Source of the DNA: Pseudobdellovibrionaceae bacterium | GTDB taxonomy: Bacteria; Bdellovibrionota; Bdellovibrionia; Bdellovibrionales; Bdellovibrionaceae | DNA: 10,620 nucleotides | Assembly (NCBI GenBank): GCA_041288045.1 | Contig: JBGGMM010000241.1 | Location: 1-10,620 of the forward strand | Reading direction: 5' to 3' | In this document: positions 1-10,620 of the stretch, piece by piece | Position numbering within the stretch: position 1 is the stretch's first letter | Layout: each line of letters starts with the position of its first letter | Made by a program: the position numbers and the translations under genes | The notes under the pieces: generated by a model | The model's database searches: none | Seen by the model: only the letters and a program-made list of their open reading frames with translations | What the model was told of the DNA's origin: nothing

Positions 1-182
1 TAGAAAAGTCGCTGCATTATTCATTGGAAACGAAGTTGTGTTTCCACGATTTCTTTCGTAAAAACAGGATGTTGCTTTAAGCGGCGTAACACTCTGCGGC
101 GGTTCTCAGATTCTCGCATTGAGTACGCCAAATACCGCCCAGGCAGATAATTTAAGAACTAGTTATTCATTTGAATTTCAAT

Positions 183-1229
183 TTATTCTAAGAAAAGCTG
201 TTCAATAAGTTTAGCCGTCGATCCAGTCCAAAGATCGCCAGTTCCAGTGCCACACCAAAGAGATAGAAAATCTGCGGAACCTTTAGCAGTCGATGCATTT
301 CGTATGTCCCGAGTAAAATTATTCTGAGCAGGAAACGGAAGAATTGCATTGGGTTTCAAATCCATTTCTTCCATAAAACGATTCACGAGTCCTCTCGCCA
401 ATCTACCTGAGAAAATACGGGTAAGTCTGGTCTTTCGCTCCTTTGACTCTAGAAGCTTGAATCGATAAGGTTCTGAAGTTCCAGCTTCTTGAACTGCTAA
501 AAACGCTGTCCCCATTTGGACGACATCAGCACCTGCTCGGAGAGCCATTGTCACATGATCTTTAGTCATGATCCCACCAGCAGCGATCAAGGGAACTTTG
601 ATTTTCCCTTTAACTTCTCTTAAGAGATCCAACATTGTGATATTGGGATCACTTGCTAACGGATCAAATATCCCTCTGTGCCCACCCGCTTCAACACCCT
701 GTAGGACAACGGCGTCGACACCAGAGTCTTCAAGAGCCAGCGCTTCCTCAGGAGTAGTAGCAGTTCCAATGGTGAACAAGCCCTGTTTATGTGCTTCTTT
801 AAGGTAATCATTCTGTAAAGTTCCAAATACGAAACTAAATGCATTCGGCCTGAGAGATAAAACAGCCTCAAACTGTTTGTTGAAATCTTCTTCATAAGGC
901 GGGCTCACCTTCGGCACAGGCAGACCCAGTTCACTTCTAAAATTTTTAGTCTGTTGGATTGCTTCCTGAAGGAGATCTTCTGAAACTTCAGGGATTCGGC
1001 TTGGAATAAACAAATTAATTAAAATAGGTTTTTTTGTTCGCACCCGAACCTGATTGGTCATTTCTTTGATTTTGTCAGGTGAAAGGTAGGCTGCACCGAT
1101 TGAGCCAAGGGCTCCAGATTCCGAAGCAGCAACAACTAAATCCACTGAAGAAGGGCCTCCAGCCATCGGGGCAACAATCAAGGGGACATTTAATTGGAGT
1201 GCATGCGTAAGCCGAGTATTGAAGTCCAT
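183..1229 (-). CDS. Nitronate monooxygenase (class I NMO / 2-nitropropane dioxygenase family, FMN-dependent), 348 aa
   Basis: Motifs APMAGG, QGVEAGGHRG (catalytic His), AAGGIM, QMGTAFL..EAG, TRIFSGRLARGLVNRF and DFLSLWCGTG. Start moved from the ORF-track 1325 to the ATG at 1229 (MDFNTRLTHALQLNVPLIVAPMAGG), which matches the usual family N-terminus. Confidence 0.9.
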   Translation of the reverse strand: MDFNTRLTHALQLNVPLIVAPMAGGPSSVDLVVAASESGALGSIGAAYLSPDKIKEMTNQVRVRTKKPILINLFIPSRIPEVSEDLLQEAIQQTKNFRSELGLPVPKVSPPYEEDFNKQFEAVLSLRPNAFSFVFGTLQNDYLKEAHKQGLFTIGTATTPEEALALEDSGVDAVVLQGVEAGGHRGIFDPLASDPNITMLDLLREVKGKIKVPLIAAGGIMTKDHVTMALRAGADVVQMGTAFLAVQEAGTSEPYRFKLLESKERKTRLTRIFSGRLARGLVNRFMEEMDLKPNAILPFPAQNNFTRDIRNASTAKGSADFLSLWCGTGTGDLWTGSTAKLIEQLFLE

Positions 1230-1475
1230 ATTGGTATGTTGAAGGCAGTTCACCTCTAAGTCATGGAGCAGCCTGTGAAACTTTCTGGTTCCCTGCAAAC
1301 TCGGGAACACAAAAATAAAAGGCATCGGGAACTACAACTTATTCTTTGATGATAGCAATCTGTTAATAAGCACAGCGACTTAGTTAGGCACCCATTCGGG
1401 AACAAGCATTCACGAAATCATCCACCAAGGAACGCCACTTCCTAATCTAGGATCCCGGATAAACCATTGGAGTAC

Positions 1476-2108
1476 CTATCCGCGAATCCAATCCATGACA
1501 TCACCCCCAAGCTTAATCGCCAGAACTAAAAGAATAACTCCCGAAATCAGCGAAACGAAACGCATAGCTGTCGGGCTCTTGAGAAGACGACTTCCCATTG
1601 AAGCAAGCAACGCAAGGCCGAAGAACCAGATGGTTGAAAACGCTGAGGCTCCTGCTCCAAAGTAAAATCGCTCAGTCATTTCTCCGAATTTGGCAGAATA
1701 GCCACCAACCAAGACAACTGTATCAAGATAAACGTGCGGATTGAGTAGACTAAATCCAAGAGTTGTCAGAACGGTTTGCTTCATAGTGGTCGCCTGTTTT
1801 GAATCGAGCGAAATCTGAATCCCATTCTTTGCTTCCTTTAGTTTCAGAAATCCATAGAAGAACAGAAATCCGACTCCAACTATGCCAAGTCCAATTTTCA
1901 AAAGAGGAACTTGAACAAAGAATGTTGCCACGCCTAGCACTCCGACAAAAATAAGAAGCGTGTCACAGACGGAAGAGACAAAGGCGACTAGCAAATGCCG
2001 TTGCCTCCTAAGACCCGAGTTAAGAACAAAGATATTTTGGGCACCTAAAGCCAGAATCAAACTTGCTTGAAGGAAAAAACCTTGAACGAAGAGACTAAGC
2101 GATGACAT
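1476..2108 (-). CDS. LysE/ArgO family amino-acid exporter (arginine/lysine/canavanine exporter-like), 210 aa
   Basis: Signatures LILALGAQNIFVLNSGLRRQ, CDTLLIFVGVLG, LLNPHVYLDTVVLVG and GASAFSTIWFFGL; about 6 hydrophobic segments; SD GAGGGGG at 2113-2119. Confidence 0.92.
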   Translation of the reverse strand: MSSLSLFVQGFFLQASLILALGAQNIFVLNSGLRRQRHLLVAFVSSVCDTLLIFVGVLGVATFFVQVPLLKIGLGIVGVGFLFFYGFLKLKEAKNGIQISLDSKQATTMKQTVLTTLGFSLLNPHVYLDTVVLVGGYSAKFGEMTERFYFGAGASAFSTIWFFGLALLASMGSRLLKSPTAMRFVSLISGVILLVLAIKLGGDVMDWIRG

Positions 2109-2120
2109 GCGACCCCCTCA

Positions 2121-2162
2121 AGAGCCGTCTTTGCGAATCCTGGTACGGTTCTCCTCGTCAGG
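2121..2162 (-). ncRNA. Guanidine-III (ykkC-III) riboswitch aptamer in the 5' UTR of the LysE/ArgO gene
   Basis: Transcript sequence CCUGACGAGGAGAACCGUACCAGGAUUCGCAAAGACGGCUCU. P1 is CCUG/CAGG; pseudoknot P2 is AGAACCGU/ACGGCUCU with one A-C mismatch. The core ACGAGG, CCGUAC and AAGACGG blocks are present. It ends 1 nt before the SD. Confidence 0.88.
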
Positions 2163-2199
2163 GACATTAGAAATGCCAAAATATTCGACTTGTTCGCCT

Positions 2200-2229
2200 A
2201 AGATAGCACGACACTAAACTTCATTTCAA
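2200..2229 (-). promoter_or_regulatory. Putative sigma70 promoter for the riboswitch-lysE transcript
   Basis: TTGAAA (2224-2229)-N18-TATCTT (2200-2205) with an extended -10 TG. The predicted start near 2193 would place the whole aptamer in an ~85-nt 5' UTR. Confidence 0.5.
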
Positions 2230-2306
2230 TCAGCAACATATCAAGCTGTGCGTACAAAATCTGTGGGACTCCGGAAGAACCATCATCCTAATTTACGTTA
2301 GTGGAA

Positions 2307-3482
2307 TCAGAGACACCGTCTTAGCACTTCCAAGCCCTCATCAACGGTGGCAAGGTCAATATTCAGGGCAGGAAACATCGTAAATCCTTGTTCACCCTCG
2401 GATAAAATAAGCCCCTCTTCTTTGGTTTTTTCAACGATGTGTTGGCCATAGTCTTCACTTTCGAAATTCACTCCGATGGCAAGACCAAGATAAGAAAAGC
2501 GAGGTTCTTCCTTGAAGTCCATTTGCGATATTTGGTCGACGAGATAGTGACCCATTTCTTGGGTATTGCTCTCAAGAAAATTCCGGTTTTCAGAGTAATA
2601 GGAAAGTGTCGCCAGCGCAGCTTCCACACTGCGCGGATGCCAACCATAGGTTGAGTAATAGCTACTTTCATATCGCATGGCCTGAGAAACCTCTTCACTC
2701 ATTAGGACCGCACCCATAGGAGCAAAACCTCCGGTGATAGCCTTCCCCAAACAAAGGATATCTGGTTGCAAATGGAAATGTTCACACGCAAAAATTTTCC
2801 CGGTTCGACCGAAGCCCGTGGCCACTTCGTCGATAATCAAAACAGTCCCGGATTTTTTGCAGGCATCTTGAATAACATCAAAAAATTCTTGGCTCGGAAC
2901 CATGGCGCCGCGGTTGCAAATTACTGGTTCCATAATCAGGGCCGCGATATCTCGTTGTTGAAGACGATGAGCGACCCGTTCTGCTGACTTTCCGTCAAGA
3001 GGAGGTCTGATTCGGTAAGCGCTGAAAGGATTTTTGTACCAATCGCCATATTCTGGCGAGCCGATACTGCGGGCCCCAATCGAATCGCCGTGGTAAGCTT
3101 CTTCTAAAGAGATAAATTTTTGTCTTTCCGTAAAAGACATCGCTGCCTGCAAAGCAATTTCAACAGACTCTGTTCCACCTGTTGAACGAAAGCTTTTCTT
3201 CAGTTTTCTTGGCGCCATACTTTCTAATTCACGGGCGTAATCGACCCAAGGTTTATACAGTTGGTGAGGAGCCACATAGTCCGGGCCACTAAAATTCTGA
3301 ACTTTCTTTTTGATATCTTCATTATCCCAGCCAAAATTTCCCACACACCAACCCATGACAAAGTCGATGTACTTTTTGCCCCGAGTTGTGTAGACGTAAC
3401 TCCCCTTTTGTTTGGCAATTTCGATTTCATCTGGTTCGCTATCTCTTCCAATATATTTTTGATCGGTCTCAAGTGTTTTCAT
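2307..3482 (-). CDS. Class III PLP-dependent aminotransferase (acetylornithine/ornithine/omega-amine aminotransferase family), 391 aa
   Basis: Motifs GKKYIDF, STGGTESVEIAL, AYHGDS, IMEPV, IIDEVATGFGRTG, PDILCLGKAITGG (PLP lysine) and STYGWHP. The substrate cannot be assigned from sequence. Confidence 0.9.
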   Translation of the reverse strand: MKTLETDQKYIGRDSEPDEIEIAKQKGSYVYTTRGKKYIDFVMGWCVGNFGWDNEDIKKKVQNFSGPDYVAPHQLYKPWVDYARELESMAPRKLKKSFRSTGGTESVEIALQAAMSFTERQKFISLEEAYHGDSIGARSIGSPEYGDWYKNPFSAYRIRPPLDGKSAERVAHRLQQRDIAALIMEPVICNRGAMVPSQEFFDVIQDACKKSGTVLIIDEVATGFGRTGKIFACEHFHLQPDILCLGKAITGGFAPMGAVLMSEEVSQAMRYESSYYSTYGWHPRSVEAALATLSYYSENRNFLESNTQEMGHYLVDQISQMDFKEEPRFSYLGLAIGVNFESEDYGQHIVEKTKEEGLILSEGEQGFTMFPALNIDLATVDEGLEVLRRCL

Positions 3483-3597
3483 ACCCCAAAAGAAGGCAAA
3501 GGCTGGGCCAACAAAACGGATTCGTGTTCTATTACAATCAATCTATTCAGTGGACGTTGCTGGAATTTTGTTGGCACCAAAAATGGGAAAAGCCCAA

Positions 3598-4566
3598 CTA
3601 AGCCGCCTTCTTAGAACTGGCAGGACCCTCCCCGTAAAGGTCAGGGCGGATAAATTCGGCGAAGGATTTTTTTCGCTGCTGGCGAAGCCATCCTGGTCCG
3701 ACGATGGCGTAGTGCTTGTTGTGGCCGTCATTCATGAGAAGATTGTGGGCTTTGGGCAGTTCATTCCATGGCAGGTCTGGAAACATATGGTGTTCGGCGT
3801 GAAAGTTGAAATTTAAGACGAGGTCTTCGATCCATTTGGGATAGCGGCCTGTGCGCGCAATTTCAAGTTGCTCCCAGGTTGGCTTCTTGTCGTAAAACTC
3901 TTCAAAGGTAATGCCGCCATGATGGGCCAAATTGATGTAATCAAAAAAGAGAGAGTAAACTAAAATCCCTCCCCCTAAAACCAGAAGCTGTTGGGAATTT
4001 AAAGCCCACAACACTCCTCCCCAAAACAGCAAGGGAGTGAAATAGCTCAGCCAAAAATCGCCGTCTTCGAATGATTTCAGCAAACGCTTGGTTGAATGGG
4101 CCCAGAACACCACATATTGAAACAGAGCCATCCAGGGAAATCTTGTTTTCCACATGACTTCAAAAATACTTTTGGTCAGAGCGGAATGGGAGGGATAGCG
4201 TTTGACCAATTCGAGAGCTGAATCTTGGCGAAAATTTCCTGCCCAGTAATGATGTTCGATATGAATGGACCGCCACAATTTGTAAGGTAAAAAGCAAAGG
4301 GCTCCCGAAACAAAGCCCAGGAACTCATTGATGAGCTTGTTTCCATGAGCCACACCGTGGACAGCCTCATGCATGAAAACGAGATTGCGAAACAAAAGCG
4401 CGGCAATCGGAAAAACCGCGAGCCAGGCCCAAGGCCAACTCTGTTGCATCAGAAAAACAACCGAGGACCAAAGAGCCAGATCTTTGGTCATATGCAACCA
4501 AAAAACTTGAGGCTGATAATTGAATTTCAATTGCTCTCTATACTTTTTATAAAGATCTCTCGTCAT
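3598..4566 (-). CDS. Membrane di-iron fatty-acid-desaturase/hydroxylase superfamily protein, 322 aa
   Basis: Three His boxes HEAVH, HIEHH and FHAEHH (followed by MFPDLPWNELP), an extra NLAHH motif, and several Trp-rich hydrophobic segments. Confidence 0.88.
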   Translation of the reverse strand: MTRDLYKKYREQLKFNYQPQVFWLHMTKDLALWSSVVFLMQQSWPWAWLAVFPIAALLFRNLVFMHEAVHGVAHGNKLINEFLGFVSGALCFLPYKLWRSIHIEHHYWAGNFRQDSALELVKRYPSHSALTKSIFEVMWKTRFPWMALFQYVVFWAHSTKRLLKSFEDGDFWLSYFTPLLFWGGVLWALNSQQLLVLGGGILVYSLFFDYINLAHHGGITFEEFYDKKPTWEQLEIARTGRYPKWIEDLVLNFNFHAEHHMFPDLPWNELPKAHNLLMNDGHNKHYAIVGPGWLRQQRKKSFAEFIRPDLYGEGPASSKKAA

Positions 4567-4680
4567 ATGGATACTTTTCGAACCGAGCCCTTGAAAACTT
4601 AAGTCTCGAATTAAAACATGTCATATTTATTTTATTTATTTACACAATCTTCCGATGACTGAGTCTGGACAGGGGAAAAG

Positions 4681-5643
4681 GTGGCTGATTTAAAGTCAAC
4701 AATCGATCAATTTAAATTGGATCCCGCGGTTCGAAAATGGGTGAAAGAGCATTCGGAGGCTCGTCCAGGATCGCATCTTTTGATGATGGCCTTCGATTGG
4801 CTTTGCATTGGCGTTACCTGTGCTCTATCTCTGCGATTTCCGCATCCAGCGCTGTTTACTTTGAGTGTCATGGTTATCGGCTGCCGCCAGCATGCCCTCT
4901 TGGTTCTTGCTCACGATGGGGCCCATAACCGCATCAGCAAAAACAGTAGAGCCAATGATCTGTTCAGCAACCTGTTTTGCGGGTATCCCACCCTGCTCTC
5001 GACCAAAGACTATCGCCGGCATCATTTGGCTCACCATCAGCACACGAACACCGATGCCGATCCGGATTGGGCTCGCAAAATTCAAATGCGCGAATGGCAG
5101 TACCCGCAAAACCGGGTTCTAATGTTCACAACGATGCTCAAGGTTTTCTTTGTTGGCGGTCCCCTATGGATCTATTTCATGAGCAAGATGACCCAAGATA
5201 ACGGGCCTAAAATGCTCTATTGGGCTTGCGTCTTGGGAGTTGTCACTTACCTCCAGGCATGGCCCCTCTTTTTGCTTTACTGGGCCCTGCCGCTGATGAC
5301 GGTGTTTCAGGTGATTCAGCGTATTCGGAGTATTGCAGAACACTTTGGCCTGCCTCGCGCTCACGAATTGAATGACACTCGAAATATATTGGCTGGACCT
5401 ATCGAAAAGTTTTTATTAAGCCCTCACAACGTCAATTACCATCTGACTCATCATCTCTTTCCCAGTGTTCCCTTTTCCAATTTGCCGGGCTTGCATCAAA
5501 AATTAAATGAGCATCCCATCTACCGCGCTTTGGCTCACAACAATGATTCCTTTTTGTTTGGAAAAAGATCGGTCCTCCATGATTTGCGAACCTGCTCGCA
5601 AACCGAGTCCAAAGAAACAGAAAAGATTCAGGCGGCGGCCTAA
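4681..5643 (+). CDS. Membrane di-iron desaturase-family protein resembling the rhizobitoxine-FADS-like (RtxC-like) subgroup, 320 aa
   Basis: His boxes HDGAH, HHLAHH and YHLTHH, plus subgroup-type motifs IGCRQHALLVLAHD, NTDADPD, RSIAEH and PHNVNYHLTHHLFPSVPF. GTG start preceded by AGGGG. Confidence 0.88.
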   Translation: MADLKSTIDQFKLDPAVRKWVKEHSEARPGSHLLMMAFDWLCIGVTCALSLRFPHPALFTLSVMVIGCRQHALLVLAHDGAHNRISKNSRANDLFSNLFCGYPTLLSTKDYRRHHLAHHQHTNTDADPDWARKIQMREWQYPQNRVLMFTTMLKVFFVGGPLWIYFMSKMTQDNGPKMLYWACVLGVVTYLQAWPLFLLYWALPLMTVFQVIQRIRSIAEHFGLPRAHELNDTRNILAGPIEKFLLSPHNVNYHLTHHLFPSVPFSNLPGLHQKLNEHPIYRALAHNNDSFLFGKRSVLHDLRTCSQTESKETEKIQAAA

Positions 5644-5780
5644 AATTTTTTCGATCGCTGCTTATGAACAATCAGACTGACCTTCAATACCCAATCTGGC
5701 ACTAGGCTCTCTTTTTCAGGATCTGAATATAGTCCAAATCGTTGCAGTCACCTTGCCGCAAACAAAAGACGATGCCACTT

Positions 5781-5800
5781 GCTTATAAATATTTATGAGC
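5781..5800. promoter_or_regulatory. 20-bp near-perfect palindrome, candidate operator upstream of the OmpA lipoprotein gene
   Basis: GCTTATAAAT|ATTTATGAGC, 9 of 10 positions symmetric with no spacer, ending 73 bp before the GTG at 5874. Confidence 0.35.
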
Positions 5801-5873
5801 GCTCTCTTGAAGACAGGAAAGCATTTAAAATTCTTTGAATGCCGACCAAAACTGAATTTACTAAAGGAACTGA

Positions 5874-7250
5874 GTGATTAAAATAAAACCGTTTTATGTC
5901 TCTGGTCTTGTTGCAATGATAAGTTTGCTCACCGCTTGCTCGGCGAATGTTAAAAAGGCTGACATCGCAAGCACTGCCGATCCCCAGCAAGAAATCTCAA
6001 AGTTAGATGTTGATCTCACTCTAGCGACGACGAAGAACATCGACGTTCTGGCTCCCCATGAATTCAAAGACAGCGCAAAATGGCTGGCCGAGGCGAAAGA
6101 AGACCAATCTAACAAAGAAGACCAAGAAGAAATTCTGAATGACGTTCGCACGAGCCGTGGTTTTTTAGAAAAAGCTTATGGAATTTCAGCCAATCGTGCC
6201 GAGAAAGCGCCCGGACTTTTTGAAGCTCGCCAAGCCGCTTTGAAGGCAGGCGCCTCAAGCCATTCAGAATTGAGGAGTGACCTAAAAAGTGTCGACAAAG
6301 ATGTCAGCTCCGAAGCCGGAAACTTTGCTCAATTGGATTCTAAAAAAATCTCGGCCTTGCAAGAGCGCTATGTGACTCTCGAGAGACAAGCGACAATTTT
6401 ATCCCGTTTAGGAAAAAGCCAGGCTATTTTCAATGGCCTAAAAAATGACGGTGCATCTCAACAGGCTCCTTTAAGTTATAAAAAAGCTGAGCTCTCACTG
6501 AAAAATGGCGAGTCCGTGATTTCTGCGAATGTCAGAAACCCAACGGGTTACAAAGTCGCGGTCGAAACTGCAATCAATGACACTGCCCTTTTGAATGATG
6601 TGATGAATGCCATCAAACAAACCGGCAAGAATTTGCCTGAGTCAGCGGCTTTGAAAATGGTTTCTCAGAACAGGCACATTGATGCTTTGAATACAGATCT
6701 GTCTGCTTCCAATGCTGAAAGTGCTGCAAACCAAAAAGAAATGACTGAAAAAAATAAGACACTGAAGGATGAGCTGACAGACAAAGAGCAGGATCTCAAC
6801 ACTGCAAACTCACGAGTCGAAACTCAACGGGCCATGGAAAATGCCCGCACACAGTTTTCTTCGAACGAAGCAGAAGCCTACCAACAAGGTGACAATCTTT
6901 TGATCCGCTTGAAGCAAATGAACTTTGCCAGCGGTCAGTCCGACCTTCCAGGCGCTTCTTTAGAAGTCCTCGCCAAAGTTTCAGCAGTCGCGAAGTCGAT
7001 GAATGCCACTGAACTGAAAGTCGAAGGCCATACGGATTCGACCGGAACCGATAGTCAAAACAAAATCATTTCTGAAAAACGAGCTTCCGCCGTCGCCTCG
7101 TATTTCAAATCGAATGGTTTTAGTGAAGTGACTTCGCAAGGCTACGGTTTTCAGAAACCGATTGCGACCAACAAATCTAAAATAGGCCGAGCCCAAAATC
7201 GCCGCGTGGATATCATTATCACACCGGATTATTCATTAGTGACCCAGTAA
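5874..7250 (+). CDS. OmpA-family lipoprotein with long helical/coiled-coil N-terminus (DUF4398-like repeats) and C-terminal peptidoglycan-binding domain, 458 aa
   Basis: Signal peptide with lipobox LTA-C22; OmpA_C motifs NFASGQSDL, VEGHTDSTG, SEKRASAV, GYGFQKPIATN and GRAQNRRVDI; SD AAAGGA before the GTG. Confidence 0.9.
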   Translation: MIKIKPFYVSGLVAMISLLTACSANVKKADIASTADPQQEISKLDVDLTLATTKNIDVLAPHEFKDSAKWLAEAKEDQSNKEDQEEILNDVRTSRGFLEKAYGISANRAEKAPGLFEARQAALKAGASSHSELRSDLKSVDKDVSSEAGNFAQLDSKKISALQERYVTLERQATILSRLGKSQAIFNGLKNDGASQQAPLSYKKAELSLKNGESVISANVRNPTGYKVAVETAINDTALLNDVMNAIKQTGKNLPESAALKMVSQNRHIDALNTDLSASNAESAANQKEMTEKNKTLKDELTDKEQDLNTANSRVETQRAMENARTQFSSNEAEAYQQGDNLLIRLKQMNFASGQSDLPGASLEVLAKVSAVAKSMNATELKVEGHTDSTGTDSQNKIISEKRASAVASYFKSNGFSEVTSQGYGFQKPIATNKSKIGRAQNRRVDIIITPDYSLVTQ

Positions 7251-7276
7251 ATCCAATCAACAAAAAAGGAGAATTT

Positions 7277-7531
7277 ATGGCAATCAATCAAGATATCGTG
7301 AACGGAAAATGGCTCGAACTCAAAGGCGAAATTCAAAAGGCCTGGGGCAAGCTGACTTCGGATGAACTCGAGCAAACAAAAGGCGACGTCAAATCGATCG
7401 CTGGGCTTGTGTTGCAAAAATACGGTGAAGGACAAGAAAAATTTCAGCAGAAATTTGCTGAAATACTGGAACCTCTGCAGGGCAAAAAAGAACAAACAGT
7501 TTCTGCAGTCAAAGAATCCTTAAAGTCCTAA
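7277..7531 (+). CDS. CsbD/YjbJ family general stress protein, 84 aa
   Basis: GKWLELKGEIQKAWGKLTSDEL...G...GLVLQKYG pattern; strong SD AAGGAG; 26 bp after the OmpA gene, so probably co-transcribed. Confidence 0.9.
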   Translation: MAINQDIVNGKWLELKGEIQKAWGKLTSDELEQTKGDVKSIAGLVLQKYGEGQEKFQQKFAEILEPLQGKKEQTVSAVKESLKS

Positions 7532-7538
7532 TCTGGAC

Positions 7539-7575
7539 GGCTGCTGGGCAAAGAGCCCGGCGGCCATTTCAATTT
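7539..7575 (+). terminator. Putative intrinsic terminator of the ompA-csbD unit
   Basis: 11-bp stem GGCTGCTGGGC/GCCCGGCGGCC with two G-U pairs that form only on the + transcript, loop AAAGA, followed by an imperfect U tract ATTTCAATTT. Confidence 0.6.
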
Positions 7576-7646
7576 GAATAGAACTCCATTCACAGCGATA
7601 TAAAGGCTGACCAATCTCGAGCAAAGGAAATCACAAACGCACCGGG

Positions 7647-8852
7647 CTAGATTGTGCGATCTGGACGGCGCGGAATCGTAAAGTTGAAAGTGCTTCCATG
7701 GCAGAGTTTTGAATGGACCCAAAGGCGTCCGCGATGGGCTTCGATGAGCATTTTAGATATATAAAGGCCCAAGCCCAATCCGACACGATCCCTGACCCCC
7801 AGCTGTGCGTAGCGCTCAAAAATTTGAAGTCTCTTTTCTTCAGGAATACCTGGCCCCGTATCACTCACAGAAACTTGAACCGCATCTTCATTGAAAACTG
7901 CGCCAAGAGTGATAGATCCGCCTTGAGGAGTAAACTTCAAAGCGTTTCCGATCAGATTAGACAGCACCTGCAGGACCCGATCTTTATCACAAAAAACTTC
8001 GCCTGACAGATCAGGCGAAATTGTTCGCAGTTCGACACTCTTCGCAAGTGCGGCTTGCGCAAAACCCTCAATGGCCTCTTGAAGGATTTGTCCGATATCG
8101 TACTTTTTCAGCGTGAGCTGAAGCTTCCCGCCCTCAATACGCTCCATATCCAGAAGATCGGCGATTAGGCGCAAAGAAGTATCAATATTCCTTTTGATGA
8201 GTTCGATCGAACTCCGCACTTCGGGTCCAAATTCTCGAAATGCAGGGTCACTTAAAAGCAATTCTGCGCACATGGAGGCCGCACCAATAGGGTTTTTGAG
8301 ATCATGACTGACGATCGCGAGAAACTCGTCTCTTGTTGTCAAATTCGCTTTCGTTTTAGAATGTTCAGAAATTTCATCAGAGAGAAGCCCCGTCGTGCGA
8401 TTCACCTCTGAGTCCGTTCTCGTCCGCTCCGTCGAGAGACTCTGATCGGTCAACTTTCGCTCCTGCTCGAGCAACTGACTTGCTAATTTATTTTTGAATT
8501 CACGTTCCTTATCAATTGCAAGATCAACTTGAGAACGCTCTTGTTCAATTGCTTGATCTGATCTATCTCTTTCGCTGAGCAGCTGATCATGACCGATTTT
8601 TTTCTCGTCTTCTGTGGCATAACCCGATGCTTCTCTTTTTTTGGCGGAATCGAAGTCCAATCGACGGCGCATTTCGGATGAGGCTTGATCTGCCTGACGT
8701 CGTTCACTCGAAATTTTCTTGTCAGCTTGACGTTCGGCGCTGGATTTTGATTTCGTAAGAGACTCATTCGTTTTGTCGCGCTCTGCAACCAAGCTTTCGT
8801 CAGTCTTTTGTCGCTCCTCTTTTAAAAACGGGGTCGACTGAGAATGTTCCAT
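7647..8852 (-). CDS. Cytoplasmic sensor histidine kinase (HisKA + HATPase_c) with a repetitive charged N-terminus, 401 aa
   Basis: H box VSHDLKNP, N box QVLSNLIGNALKFT, G1 DTGPGI, F box IFERY and G2 GLGLGL. No transmembrane segment. SD TAGGAG at 8858-8863. Confidence 0.93.
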   Translation of the reverse strand: MEHSQSTPFLKEERQKTDESLVAERDKTNESLTKSKSSAERQADKKISSERRQADQASSEMRRRLDFDSAKKREASGYATEDEKKIGHDQLLSERDRSDQAIEQERSQVDLAIDKEREFKNKLASQLLEQERKLTDQSLSTERTRTDSEVNRTTGLLSDEISEHSKTKANLTTRDEFLAIVSHDLKNPIGAASMCAELLLSDPAFREFGPEVRSSIELIKRNIDTSLRLIADLLDMERIEGGKLQLTLKKYDIGQILQEAIEGFAQAALAKSVELRTISPDLSGEVFCDKDRVLQVLSNLIGNALKFTPQGGSITLGAVFNEDAVQVSVSDTGPGIPEEKRLQIFERYAQLGVRDRVGLGLGLYISKMLIEAHRGRLWVHSKLCHGSTFNFTIPRRPDRTI

Positions 8853-8926
8853 AAAAGCTCCTACGCAATCGATCCGCAGAATAGGAGAGCTGATTCTAAA
8901 TCCGTTCTCCGGCGACTGCCGGGAGT

Positions 8927-8935
8927 ATTATACCA
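8927..8935 (-). promoter_or_regulatory. Extended -10 promoter element upstream of the histidine kinase
   Basis: TG-G-TATAAT, a perfect extended -10, about 75 nt upstream of the ATG; no convincing -35. Confidence 0.5.
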
Positions 8936-9053
8936 CGTTGAAAGTGCGATGAAATGCTTCTTTTCCAGGAATGACGAGCAACACATTGTTTGATTAAGTT
9001 CCATGACCCATTGAATGACCCGACTCGATGAGCGTTGTCTCAAATAATGAACG

Positions 9054-9710
9054 TTAACTGAGTTTTCCTTTTTGCAGCCAAAGAACATTCACGGCGACAT
9101 AAAGGCTGATCAGAGCCGCAAAAAAACACCAGACCGATGCGGTCGTCTGCCGACCGATGGCCTGAGCAAGGAACATGCTTCCCAAAACCAAAAGGCCCGC
9201 CTTCTTCACTGTTCGAAGGCTCGAGATGAAAAAGGGCACCACTGTCGGAGTGAAATATAAAAAAGCTTCAAGGTTTGGTGGCAAAATTTCTTTCAAGTTG
9301 AGGTAATCATACTCCAAACTGTGGCCAACGATATTGACTTTGATTTCTAAACCGTAAAGCATAAATACGGCCAGTAGGGAGACCCCTAAGCCCAACAGTC
9401 CAATCACCTTCAAGATCCTTTTCCGCTTTTCCTTGATCTCGATATGATACAAGGACCATGGCAGCCAACTGGGCCAGACCACAAAGGCAAAGGCCAAGAA
9501 CAGGAAGATTCCAAATTTATGCATCAAACTCGTCGTCCCTGCATCCATCGTCTGCCAAACGATCCCTTCAGCAACTTGCTGAAAACCGAACAAGAGGGGA
9601 ATCGCCGCAATCATTTTTTGCTGTTTTGAACTGCTTTTGAGAGTCGTCACCGCACCAGTCGCAATCAGAAGCCCCGCTGACCCAAAGCTCATATCCGCTG
9701 AAAAACACAT
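9054..9710 (-). CDS. DUF6629-like integral membrane protein of unknown function, 218 aa
   Basis: N-terminal MCFSA.MSF, PLLFGFQQVAEGIVW and C-terminal SVWCFFAA motifs; about 7 hydrophobic helices; SD AGGAG. Confidence 0.8.
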   Translation of the reverse strand: MCFSADMSFGSAGLLIATGAVTTLKSSSKQQKMIAAIPLLFGFQQVAEGIVWQTMDAGTTSLMHKFGIFLFLAFAFVVWPSWLPWSLYHIEIKEKRKRILKVIGLLGLGVSLLAVFMLYGLEIKVNIVGHSLEYDYLNLKEILPPNLEAFLYFTPTVVPFFISSLRTVKKAGLLVLGSMFLAQAIGRQTTASVWCFFAALISLYVAVNVLWLQKGKLS

Positions 9711-10055
9711 GCTCTTTCTCCTGCATCAATTTGGAAATTCAATTCATTGAAGGCGCTTATAATGCCCTTTCATCTTGCCGACGCCAATCTACAAATCTGG
9801 CATTTTCAATGCAAATTGCGAAGCTCTGGTTATAGGCTCAAAATTTTGGCACTCCCAAAAGTAATTTTGTTTATTGTATTGGCATTCGTAGGCCCCTTAT
9901 TTGGTTTAGCCAAGGGGAAGCTTTTCTGCTCTGCTGCGCGCAAAGGTCTGCGACTTCCGCGGTCAAACACTGATGTCAAATACCATTCATAAAAATCAAT
10001 CACCGGGACCGACTTCCAAGCGCCTGAATTGTAACCAGATCTTGCCGGGTTTCGA

Positions 10056-10083
10056 TTGAGATTCGTCAATTTGGTGATAGAAT
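10056..10083 (+). promoter_or_regulatory. Putative sigma70 promoter for the rnk leader
   Basis: TTGAGA (10056-10061)-N16-TAGAAT (10078-10083) with an extended -10 TG at 10075-10076. Confidence 0.5.
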
Positions 10084-10174
10084 CGAATTTGTGAAAACAA
10101 CGTGCATCTTAAACTTATTGAGAACATCGACACAGCTCCAGACCTGCGAACTGGTGCTTAAATTTATTTCTTCT

Positions 10175-10211
10175 GGCGGTTGAGGCTTTTTCACCTCGCA
10201 GCCTAACCGCC
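10175..10211 (+). promoter_or_regulatory. Strong stem-loop in the rnk leader
   Basis: GGCGGTT-G-AGGCT/AGCCT-AACCGCC, 12 Watson-Crick pairs with a 1-nt bulge and a 12-nt loop; no U tract on either strand. Confidence 0.55.
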
Positions 10212-10285
10212 CACCTACATTCTCAGAAAAAAATAAAAATTGAAAGAACTCCGACTTATTCACAATCGGGTGAAGGGATTTATTT

Positions 10286-10620
10286 ATGGAAAATAACAAT
10301 TTAATAATGACACAAACTGATTATCAAAAACTTTCATCGCTCATCGATTTCGCCGACCCCGTCACCGCAGAACTTCTTCAAGAAGAACTCGACAGAGCTG
10401 CCGTGGTGTTGACGGATCAACTGCCACAGGATGTGGTGACAATGAATTCAAAAGTCGAATTTAAGGACCTTGATTCGGGTGAGGACTTTGTCATGACCCT
10501 CGTTTTTCCAGAGAATGCGAATATCAAGGAAAACAAAGTTTCAATACTGGCCCCAGTCGGTGCTGCACTGATCGGTTTGCGAGTGGGTCAAACCATGAGT
10601 TGGCCGACTCCACGTGGTGG
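10286..10620 (+). CDS. rnk: Regulator of nucleoside diphosphate kinase (Rnk, GreA/GreB family), truncated by the window end; absent from the ORF track
   Basis: Manual translation MENNNLIMTQTDYQKLSSLIDFADPVTAELLQEELDRAAVVLTDQLPQDVVTMNSKVEFKDLDSGEDFVMTLVFPENANIKENKVSILAPVGAALIGLRVGQTMSWPTPRG. ELDRA, DVVTMNS, TLVFP and SILAPVGAALIGLRVG are Rnk hallmarks, with the short N-terminal coil typical of Rnk. SD GAAGGG. Confidence 0.93.
   Translation, partial: MENNNLIMTQTDYQKLSSLIDFADPVTAELLQEELDRAAVVLTDQLPQDVVTMNSKVEFKDLDSGEDFVMTLVFPENANIKENKVSILAPVGAALIGLRVGQTMSWPTPRG

Follow-up and report, generated by a model that had tools for sequence, protein, structure and literature searches.

Guanidine-III riboswitches are usually found in front of genes for small multidrug resistance (SMR) exporters of the SugE/Gdx type. 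The question raised by the locus described here is why such an element precedes an exporter gene of another family, LysE/ArgO, and which compound this exporter transports. The locus is situated on contig JBGGMM010000241.1 of a Pseudobdellovibrionaceae bacterium, a Bdellovibrio-like soil organism (assembly GCA_041288045.1), of which positions 1 to 10,620 were analysed; this whole stretch is referred to as the window. In our opinion the best explanation as a whole, which we consider reasonably probable, is that a canonical guanidine-III translational ON switch acts on the LysE gene and was taken over from local SMR/Gdx genes by a small LysE sub-lineage in Bdellovibrionaceae-like bacteria. The exporter would then serve in guanidine detoxification, most likely by expelling guanidinium or a small guanidino compound.

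Identity and structure of the aptamer

When the whole window was searched with cmscan, Guanidine-III (RF01763) was the single Rfam 15 family above its gathering score. The match (2182-2119, minus strand; 41.7 bits versus a gathering score of 36; E = 4.4e-06) covers the full model from position 1 to 67 and is the only RF01763 copy in the host assembly, which comprises 2.89 Mb in 249 contigs and is 83% complete. A guanidine-III riboswitch had been claimed at this place in an earlier note on this DNA, and this check against Rfam bears the claim out. The string quoted there is present on the minus strand from 2162 to 2121, but it has a length of 42 letters and not of 41. The end of the match (2119) lies 10 nt before the ATG of the LysE gene (2108) on the same strand, and the element is thus part of the 5' leader.

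For the comparison of aptamers the Rfam model and 83 unique natural cores served as reference set. According to the cmscan alignment, the optional 5' hairpin of the model is present as GGCAU and AUGUC (2177-2163, minus strand as for all parts of the leader). Analysis of the pairing against the natural cores showed that the 5' strand of P1, CCUG (2162-2159), forms four of four standard pairs with its 3' strand CAGG (2142-2139). The invariant ACGA (2158-2155) includes C6 and G7, and G17 is present at 2146 in CCGUACC; these three residues make up the ligand-binding core of guanidine-III aptamers described by Lenkeit et al. 2020 (PMC7736828). P2 is formed by GAACCGU (2151-2145), which contains G17, and ACGGCUC (2128-2122); the latter was recognized by cmscan, folding and core comparison and doubles as anti-Shine-Dalgarno (anti-SD) strand. 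Six of the seven P2 pairs are formed, with an A.C mismatch at 2149/2124, and six of seven pairs were also counted in 60 of the 83 unique natural cores.

Two base pairs had been noted earlier as compensatory exchanges, and both are real. The third pair of P1, U3-A22 (2160/2141), covaries over 80 cores (G-C 47, C-G 22, U-A 11), and A13-U40 in P2 (2150/2123) is a standard pair. As an internal control, three chance-like pattern matches among the cores were found to pair poorly. The A.C subtype of P2 occurs in seven unique cores, i.e. that of the window and six others, which are all linked to SMR genes. Together with its variable linker AUUCGC, the core of the window equals an SMR-linked copy in genome G502 except for the last P2 pair (G-C versus G.U), and every paired and conserved position is identical to that of the SMR-linked locus L156. 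In the comparison with SMR-linked cores, no signature specific for LysE-linked aptamers was detected. With its binding core and both pseudoknot stems intact, the element qualifies as a true guanidine-III aptamer. Because its core matches the two SMR-linked copies mentioned, its ligand is expected to be guanidinium, the one validated for the class.

Expression platform and proposed mechanism

The Shine-Dalgarno (SD) sequence GAGGGGG (2119-2113) is located 4 nt 5' of the ATG. In a pseudoknot-free fold, CGGCUCU (2127-2121) pairs with GGGGUCG (2116-2110) around the loop UGAG; this alternative hairpin (2127-2110), the putative OFF state, has a free energy of -7.8 kcal/mol, accounts for 79% of the ensemble of a 29-nt segment and masks most of the SD run. 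An anti-SD hairpin has also been preserved in a second LysE leader, found in genome G476 (see below), where the SD is a different one, GGGAG (-9.9 kcal/mol; z = -2.66 versus shuffles). The ability of the P2 3' strand to pair alternatively with the SD is thus retained in both LysE leaders for which DNA was at hand. A fold-back of this strand and the bases next to it onto the SD is seen in the majority of SMR-linked leaders of the phylum as well, with at least five of the first nine bases paired in 17 of 20 unique segments. The minimum free energy of the whole leader is no better than that of shuffled sequences (z = 0.69), which is to be expected because of the pseudoknot.

Between positions 1350 and 2450 no terminator-like site was found. 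For this riboswitch class, release of the SD upon ligand binding and protection against RNase E have been reviewed as mode of action (PMC12186494). Applied to the window, the P2 3' strand (2127-2121) would pair with the SD run (2116-2110) as long as no ligand is present and would block the entry of ribosomes. Guanidinium bound at the ACGA/G17 core would stabilise the pseudoknot of P1 (2162-2159/2142-2139) and P2 (2151-2145/2128-2122); the P2 3' strand would thereby be withdrawn, the SD would become free, and translation could start from the ATG at 2108. The ligand-bound form may additionally shield the mRNA from RNase E, as reported for the class. It is very likely that the element functions as an ON switch of LysE which responds to guanidine. 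A promoter-like site was revealed by a consensus scan (-35 TTGAAA at 2229-2224, an 18-nt spacer and a TG-extended -10 TATCTT at 2205-2200, minus strand) and would weakly suggest a transcript start about 10-15 nt 5' of the Rfam match.

The LysE/ArgO-family gene

The gene behind the aptamer (1476-2108, minus strand, ATG at 2108) encodes a putative exporter of 210 amino acids, of which residues 16-200 match PF01810 (LysE, TC 2.A.75) with 113 bits versus a cut-off of 25.6. The earlier assignment of a LysE-type gene, with the aptamer placed to control it, could thus be upheld; a match to the SMR domain PF00893 was not obtained in the open reading frame 1476-2108. The best matches among the NCBIfam models were the L-lysine exporter equivalog TIGR00948 (163.8 bits, cut-off 213.65) and the ArgO equivalog NF006801 (143.4 bits, cut-off 298), and neither cut-off was reached. 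The homologue search yielded 3553 proteins, the top ones being 72-85% identical, and those of the top homologues bearing names belong mostly to Bdellovibrionota, Oligoflexia, Pseudobdellovibrio or Bdellovibrio.

Since the protein begins with MSS, like the products of several riboswitch-linked SMR genes, a junction inside the coding region was considered. The closest LysE homologues also begin with MS..S(I/L)F, and the N-terminus is therefore native.

Recurrence of the riboswitch-LysE unit

A second LysE-linked aptamer was detected in G476, a 99% complete genome of another genus of the same family. There, a tandem locus (L184:8128-9887, contig C13) is composed in the order aptamer (45.1 bits), LysE, FMN_bind_2, aptamer (46.1 bits) and SugE. 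This LysE protein is 79% identical to that of the window, and the SugE protein reaches 126.9 bits with NF008512 (cut-off 126). The FMN_bind_2 gene (PaiB-like, PF04299, 190.6 bits) starts 11 nt after the LysE stop codon, within the operon of the first riboswitch; no guanidine-related role is known for this gene. The gene following LysE in the window (NMO family, 183-1325) is also dependent on flavin mononucleotide but belongs to an unrelated fold family. A gene for a phage-type integrase is located upstream of the G476 unit (L184:6528-7496, minus strand).

Two further cases became apparent at the protein level among the 120 best-matching LysE homologues: their N-termini are extended by residues that result from translation reading through the aptamer. 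In P0002 (85% identical), 13 of 13 residues of LTRRTVPGFAKTA agree with frame 0 of the window aptamer. In P0075 (75% identical, encoded on a 97.6-kb contig), the extension PDEVNRTRLGKDGS corresponds to PDEENRTRIRKDGS in frame 2 of the window aptamer. Such cases are detectable only when the leader lacks an in-frame stop codon, so that their count is a lower bound. When the N-terminal 40 residues of P0002 were used as query to find other proteins of this kind, P0002 alone was retrieved. Because of the tandem locus in G476, the two read-through proteins, the retained anti-SD pairing and the near-identity to the copy in G502, the linkage of the switch to LysE is, judged from these comparisons, not accidental.

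Rarity of the pairing

The genes behind the aptamer were surveyed in a wide scan across phyla, for which the exact core pattern was used with one genome per species and at least 120 loci were typed. Among the matches listed, 109 loci preceded SMR genes and none a LysE gene; the remainder consisted of two confirmed members of the arginase family, two arginase-like leaders, three CBU_0592-family genes and four chance-like matches. The core occurs in 28 of 401 genomes of the phylum and precedes an SMR gene in all 27 besides the window's genome. In the host family, 31 of 182 genomes contain 32 copies, 30 linked to SMR and two to LysE. A composite pattern consisting of the aptamer 3' half, the spacer and the conserved N-terminal codons of LysE was found in 2 of 384 genomes of the order. 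As to published counts, no LysE domain appears among the 42 first genes in Additional file 8 of Weinberg et al. 2010 (EmrE/SMR 0.925, arginase family 0.05, DUF839 0.025), and in Table S4 of Lenkeit 2020 (PMC7736828) SugE accounts for 82% of guanidine-III. The aptamer-LysE pairing is rare, and a known riboswitch class is recruited to a new effector family; the atypical pairing proposed earlier is hereby supported.

The host, in contrast, does not constitute a novelty. The apparently non-actinobacterial origin had been regarded as one, but the DNA stems from the Bdellovibrionota, and this group was already listed for the motif in 2010, when Weinberg et al. named delta-Proteobacteria for ykkC-III. 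A literature search yielded no article in which a guanidine riboswitch is described in front of a gene of the LysE family, the gene contexts of the full Rfam hits lying outside its scope. Within its main text and part of its supplement, Lenkeit et al. 2020 (PMC7736828) contains no occurrence of LysE. The nearest published statement is a remark on the co-evolution of SugE and ArgO (PMC12623156).

Some loci of the wide scan deserve mention in their own right. The leaders and first codons of L110 and L111 resemble those of the arginase-family-linked loci L011 and L020 (300 nt of downstream DNA). At L037:1010-1258 (minus strand), L052:1018-1275 (minus strand) and L074:1356-1610 (plus strand), the guanidine-III aptamer is followed by a gene for a CBU_0592-family membrane protein of 82-85 amino acids. 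The hosts are actinobacterial, namely Streptacidiphilus, a metagenome-assembled genome (MAG) of the Nanopelagicales and Dactylosporangium. These proteins score 37-45 bits with NF047864 (cut-off 25), are 51-61% identical to each other and may represent another small guanidine-related transporter. A literature search for CBU_0592 gave no match.

Distribution among LysE orthologues and origin of the switch

In addition to the window, the set of close LysE loci (n = 13, at least 62% identical) comprised the metagenome locus L131, which was the one relative obtained in a metagenome scan and has no riboswitch, two loci in G476 and one each in G045, G059, G208, G418, G503, G379, G400, G475 and G477. 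The orthologue in G503 (L189, G503:C4:477811-478431) contains an in-frame TAA and could be a pseudogene or the result of a sequencing error. An RF01763 match at E <= 1 was obtained at two of the thirteen loci, the window and contig C13 of G476. The earlier note had looked to the leaders of homologues for conservation of the switch, and here the outcome is divided: it is absent from the great majority of close loci, yet it recurs in G476 and in the two read-through proteins.

A quick IQ-TREE calculation with 125 LysE proteins assigned the four genes linked to a riboswitch to two adjacent clades of 16 and 8 rows, and all nine riboswitch-free close orthologues in a separate clade of 75 rows. One state change suffices on this tree, and only one of 500 label shuffles was equally good. 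This is compatible with a single capture of the switch by a LysE lineage, although the support is too weak to decide against several captures. The LysE-linked aptamers resemble local SMR-linked ones; that of the window is similar to the copy in G502, and both copies in G476 have the linker CUACGA. This resemblance points to an acquisition by copying from gdx leaders or by gene conversion.

The window's own genome (G000) possesses one SMR gene, which is SugE-like, lies on a separate contig (L006:1501-1821, G000:C114:5301-5576) and encodes a protein 48% identical to the riboswitch-linked SMR protein of the congener G005. Upstream of it, no riboswitch of any Rfam family was detected at E <= 1, so that in this assembly a guanidine switch precedes no gene other than LysE. 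A tRNA gene is located directly upstream of the riboswitch-SMR unit in G005 (L005:1620-1710, minus strand; L172), and another one was found near the riboswitch-free SMR gene of G000 (L006:695-783). These positions could mark a hot spot of integration.

Function of the exporter and alternative explanations

We take the LysE exporter to be a putative part of the guanidine detoxification response. Provided that the switch works, the chances that the cargo is guanidinium or a small guanidino compound appear about balanced. This cargo is favoured because the other transporters behind the aptamer, all of them SMR/Gdx or small membrane proteins, are guanidine exporters or candidates for this function, and because the LysE unit of G476 abuts a riboswitch-SugE unit. 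A wider proposal can be made only tentatively, and we hold it to be somewhat doubtful: LysE/ArgO may be a further, structurally unrelated class of exporters for guanidinium (or a small guanidino compound), revealed by a sub-lineage of Bdellovibrionaceae that captured the guanidine-III switch from gdx, with G476 harbouring a tandem guanidine-responsive locus that includes a PaiB-like FMN-binding protein.

Several observations weigh against the explanation given at the beginning. The switch is absent at E <= 1 from 11 of the 13 close LysE loci, and the ancestral task of the LysE clade is therefore not guanidine-specific. The branch separating the riboswitch-linked from the other LysE proteins has a weak SH-aLRT support of 79. 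Both of the best NCBIfam matches lie below their cut-offs and no solved structure was found by sequence among the LysE homologues, for which reasons the substrate of LysE is not readable from the sequence. Asp at residue 102 of the window protein, in the central loop, is the sole alignment column that separates the riboswitch-linked clades (13 of 16 and 7 of 8 rows versus 5 of 70 in the other clade), and there is no sign of a re-tooled binding site; thus the regulation changed, and nothing shows a change of the transporter. The energy of the alternative hairpin in the window is unexceptional in comparison to shuffled sequences (z = -1.07), and the promoter-like site, with 9 of 12 consensus matches and two sites found versus 1.1 expected by shuffling, is a weak indication. 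In G000, the regulation lies with LysE and not with the SMR gene, which is riboswitch-free. Moreover, what the DNA itself shows is a structured aptamer and its placement in front of LysE at more than one locus; ligand binding, switching and transport, and with them the identity of the ligand, the ON mode of the switch and the cargo, are inferred from these features.

Some of these observations would also fit an exporter which, as part of the same regulatory unit, keeps the classical cargo of its family (arginine, lysine or one of their analogues, for example canavanine), with guanidine serving as a proxy signal that guanidino compounds are in excess or being broken down. The two equivalog models matched best, the single diverging loop residue and the riboswitch-free orthologues, which are 74-80% identical and common in the phylum, are in accordance with this, as is the finding of Danchin et al. 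2025 (PMC12623156) that SugE of E. coli co-evolves with ArgO in phylogenetic profiles. However, the exporters tested behind guanidine ON switches carry guanidinium itself, as established for Gdx (PMC12186494), the scores remain under the cut-offs of both equivalogs, and there is no known pathway by which free guanidine would be a reliable read-out of arginine excess. We therefore regard retention of the classical cargo as unlikely, although it deserves serious consideration.

It would also be conceivable that the aptamer came to lie before LysE as a neutral by-product of a rearrangement or of a local duplication of an SMR leader, with no selected role or with leaky expression of LysE as its consequence. 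The low number of genomes with the composite pattern, the likeness of each LysE-linked aptamer to a local SMR-linked one, the integrase gene adjoining the G476 unit and the mosaic neighbourhood of the window could be understood in this way. Nevertheless, the unit was kept by four LysE genes with a mutual identity of 75-85%, a sign that it persisted through speciation events; the aptamers are undamaged, with scores higher than the gathering threshold, the anti-SD pairing is maintained with the different SDs GGGGG and GGGAG, and the start codon follows at the same distance as in functional SMR units. A neutral origin is thus very unlikely. Finally, evidence for a changed ligand has been reported for a variant of guanidine-IV (PMC9788692), and the specificity of the present aptamer might likewise have shifted, either to an amino acid with a guanidino group or to a substituted guanidine, so as to match the cargo of a LysE-type exporter. 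The identity to SMR-linked copies described above, at all conserved and paired positions (L156) and in the whole core and linker save one change of G-C to G.U (G502), together with the lack of a LysE-specific signature, makes such a shift extremely improbable.

Comparison with known systems and significance

The unit shares the aptamer subtype, the pseudoknot and the binding core with the guanidine-III-sugE/gdx units of Actinobacteria, Myxococcota and Bdellovibrio, and, as in those units, it is situated immediately 5' of the SD and the start codon, with a P2 3' strand that can pair alternatively with the SD. It differs in the transporter, which is of the six-helix LysE/ArgO type (PF01810) here and a four-helix SMR protein (PF00893) there.

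LysE of Corynebacterium and ArgO of E. coli are under the control of the LysR-type activators LysG and ArgP, respectively. The exporters belong to the same family as the one studied here, and in each case expression is induced by a small molecule with the basic group of the cargo or one similar to it. In the window, by contrast, the sensor is a leader RNA and the signal is guanidine instead of an amino acid. No adjacent LysR-type gene was found among the open reading frames of the window in Pfam and NCBIfam profile searches.

Guanidine-IV (mepA) riboswitches occur before genes for MATE and PnuC-like transporters (PMC7736828) and, like the present unit, direct attention to candidate guanidine exporters in families that are not related to SugE; the riboswitch class, the mechanism (a transcription terminator there) and the transporter families differ. 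The profile link between SugE and ArgO in E. coli also ties a guanidine exporter to a LysE-family exporter, but it is a statistical co-occurrence only, and a shared regulator or riboswitch is not described in the part of that article considered (PMC12623156). Taken together, the data suggest that a second, unrelated transporter family, LysE/ArgO, also takes part in the bacterial guanidine response.

Associations of riboswitches with genes were the route by which the guanidine field arrived at Gdx, guanidine carboxylase and the MATE and PnuC-like candidates. A guanidine-III element before a LysE/ArgO gene provides a hypothesis on inducer and cargo for a clade with thousands of uncharacterised members. 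G476 offers a natural pair for the comparison of exporter types, with LysE and SugE under near-identical switches. The locus is also an example of a 60-nt regulatory module that was re-used for a new gene while its anti-SD logic was kept. If the riboswitch-free orthologues do share the substrate, a transporter common across the Bdellovibrionota would gain a physiological cargo. The reach of these findings is limited by the four known instances, and the riboswitch class and the host group had already been described.

Genome context and assembly

The junction of aptamer and LysE was checked for misassembly of the MAG. A Logan contig of 789 nt, produced by another assembler, covers 1705-2493 without a single difference and spans the junction, and an artefact of the MAG assembler is therefore dismissed; the run is probably that of the source sample, so the agreement is independent with regard to the assembler only. 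A further sequencing run (X2) matched a small share, parts of 1673-1823 and 2620-2662 only. No RNA runs were listed among the sequencing runs matched to the window.

Neighbouring genes of the window encode a class-III aminotransferase, a desaturase-like protein, a GntB-like protein and the NMO-family protein mentioned above. Two divergently transcribed genes belong to the membrane di-iron fatty acid desaturase family (3598-4566, minus strand; 4681-5643, plus strand). One of the two encodes the GntB-like protein, which matches the guanitoxin arginine gamma-hydroxylase model NF041365 with 158 bits versus a cut-off of 380 and is 53% identical to a protein of Bdellovibrio bacteriovorus and 38-44% identical to planctomycete proteins; these relatives are all annotated only as members of the desaturase family. 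MgdH, an enzyme also considered in this connection, is a soluble 2-OG dioxygenase. An arginine-modifying island was considered but is no more than speculation, as it received no comparative support and the neighbouring genes have no conserved link to the aptamer-LysE unit. In G005, a homologue of the GntB-like protein (44%) is encoded at a distance of 9 kb from the riboswitch-SMR unit, and the genes in between are unrelated. Orthologues of the aminotransferase in G388 (87%), G340 and G353 are accompanied by none of the other genes of the window, and the neighbours of the LysE unit in G476 differ from those in the window.

Apart from the aptamer core (50 nt) in G005 and a multi-copy CsbD-like gene, almost no synteny was found at the DNA level within the genus. 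The CsbD-like gene, encoding a small stress protein (PF05532; 7277-7531, plus strand), has several matching places per genome. The aminotransferase orthologue of G340 (L208/L206, G340:C38:1946-3119) is split in two frames with one TGA and one TAA as in-frame stops, which may reflect either a pseudogene or an error of sequencing.

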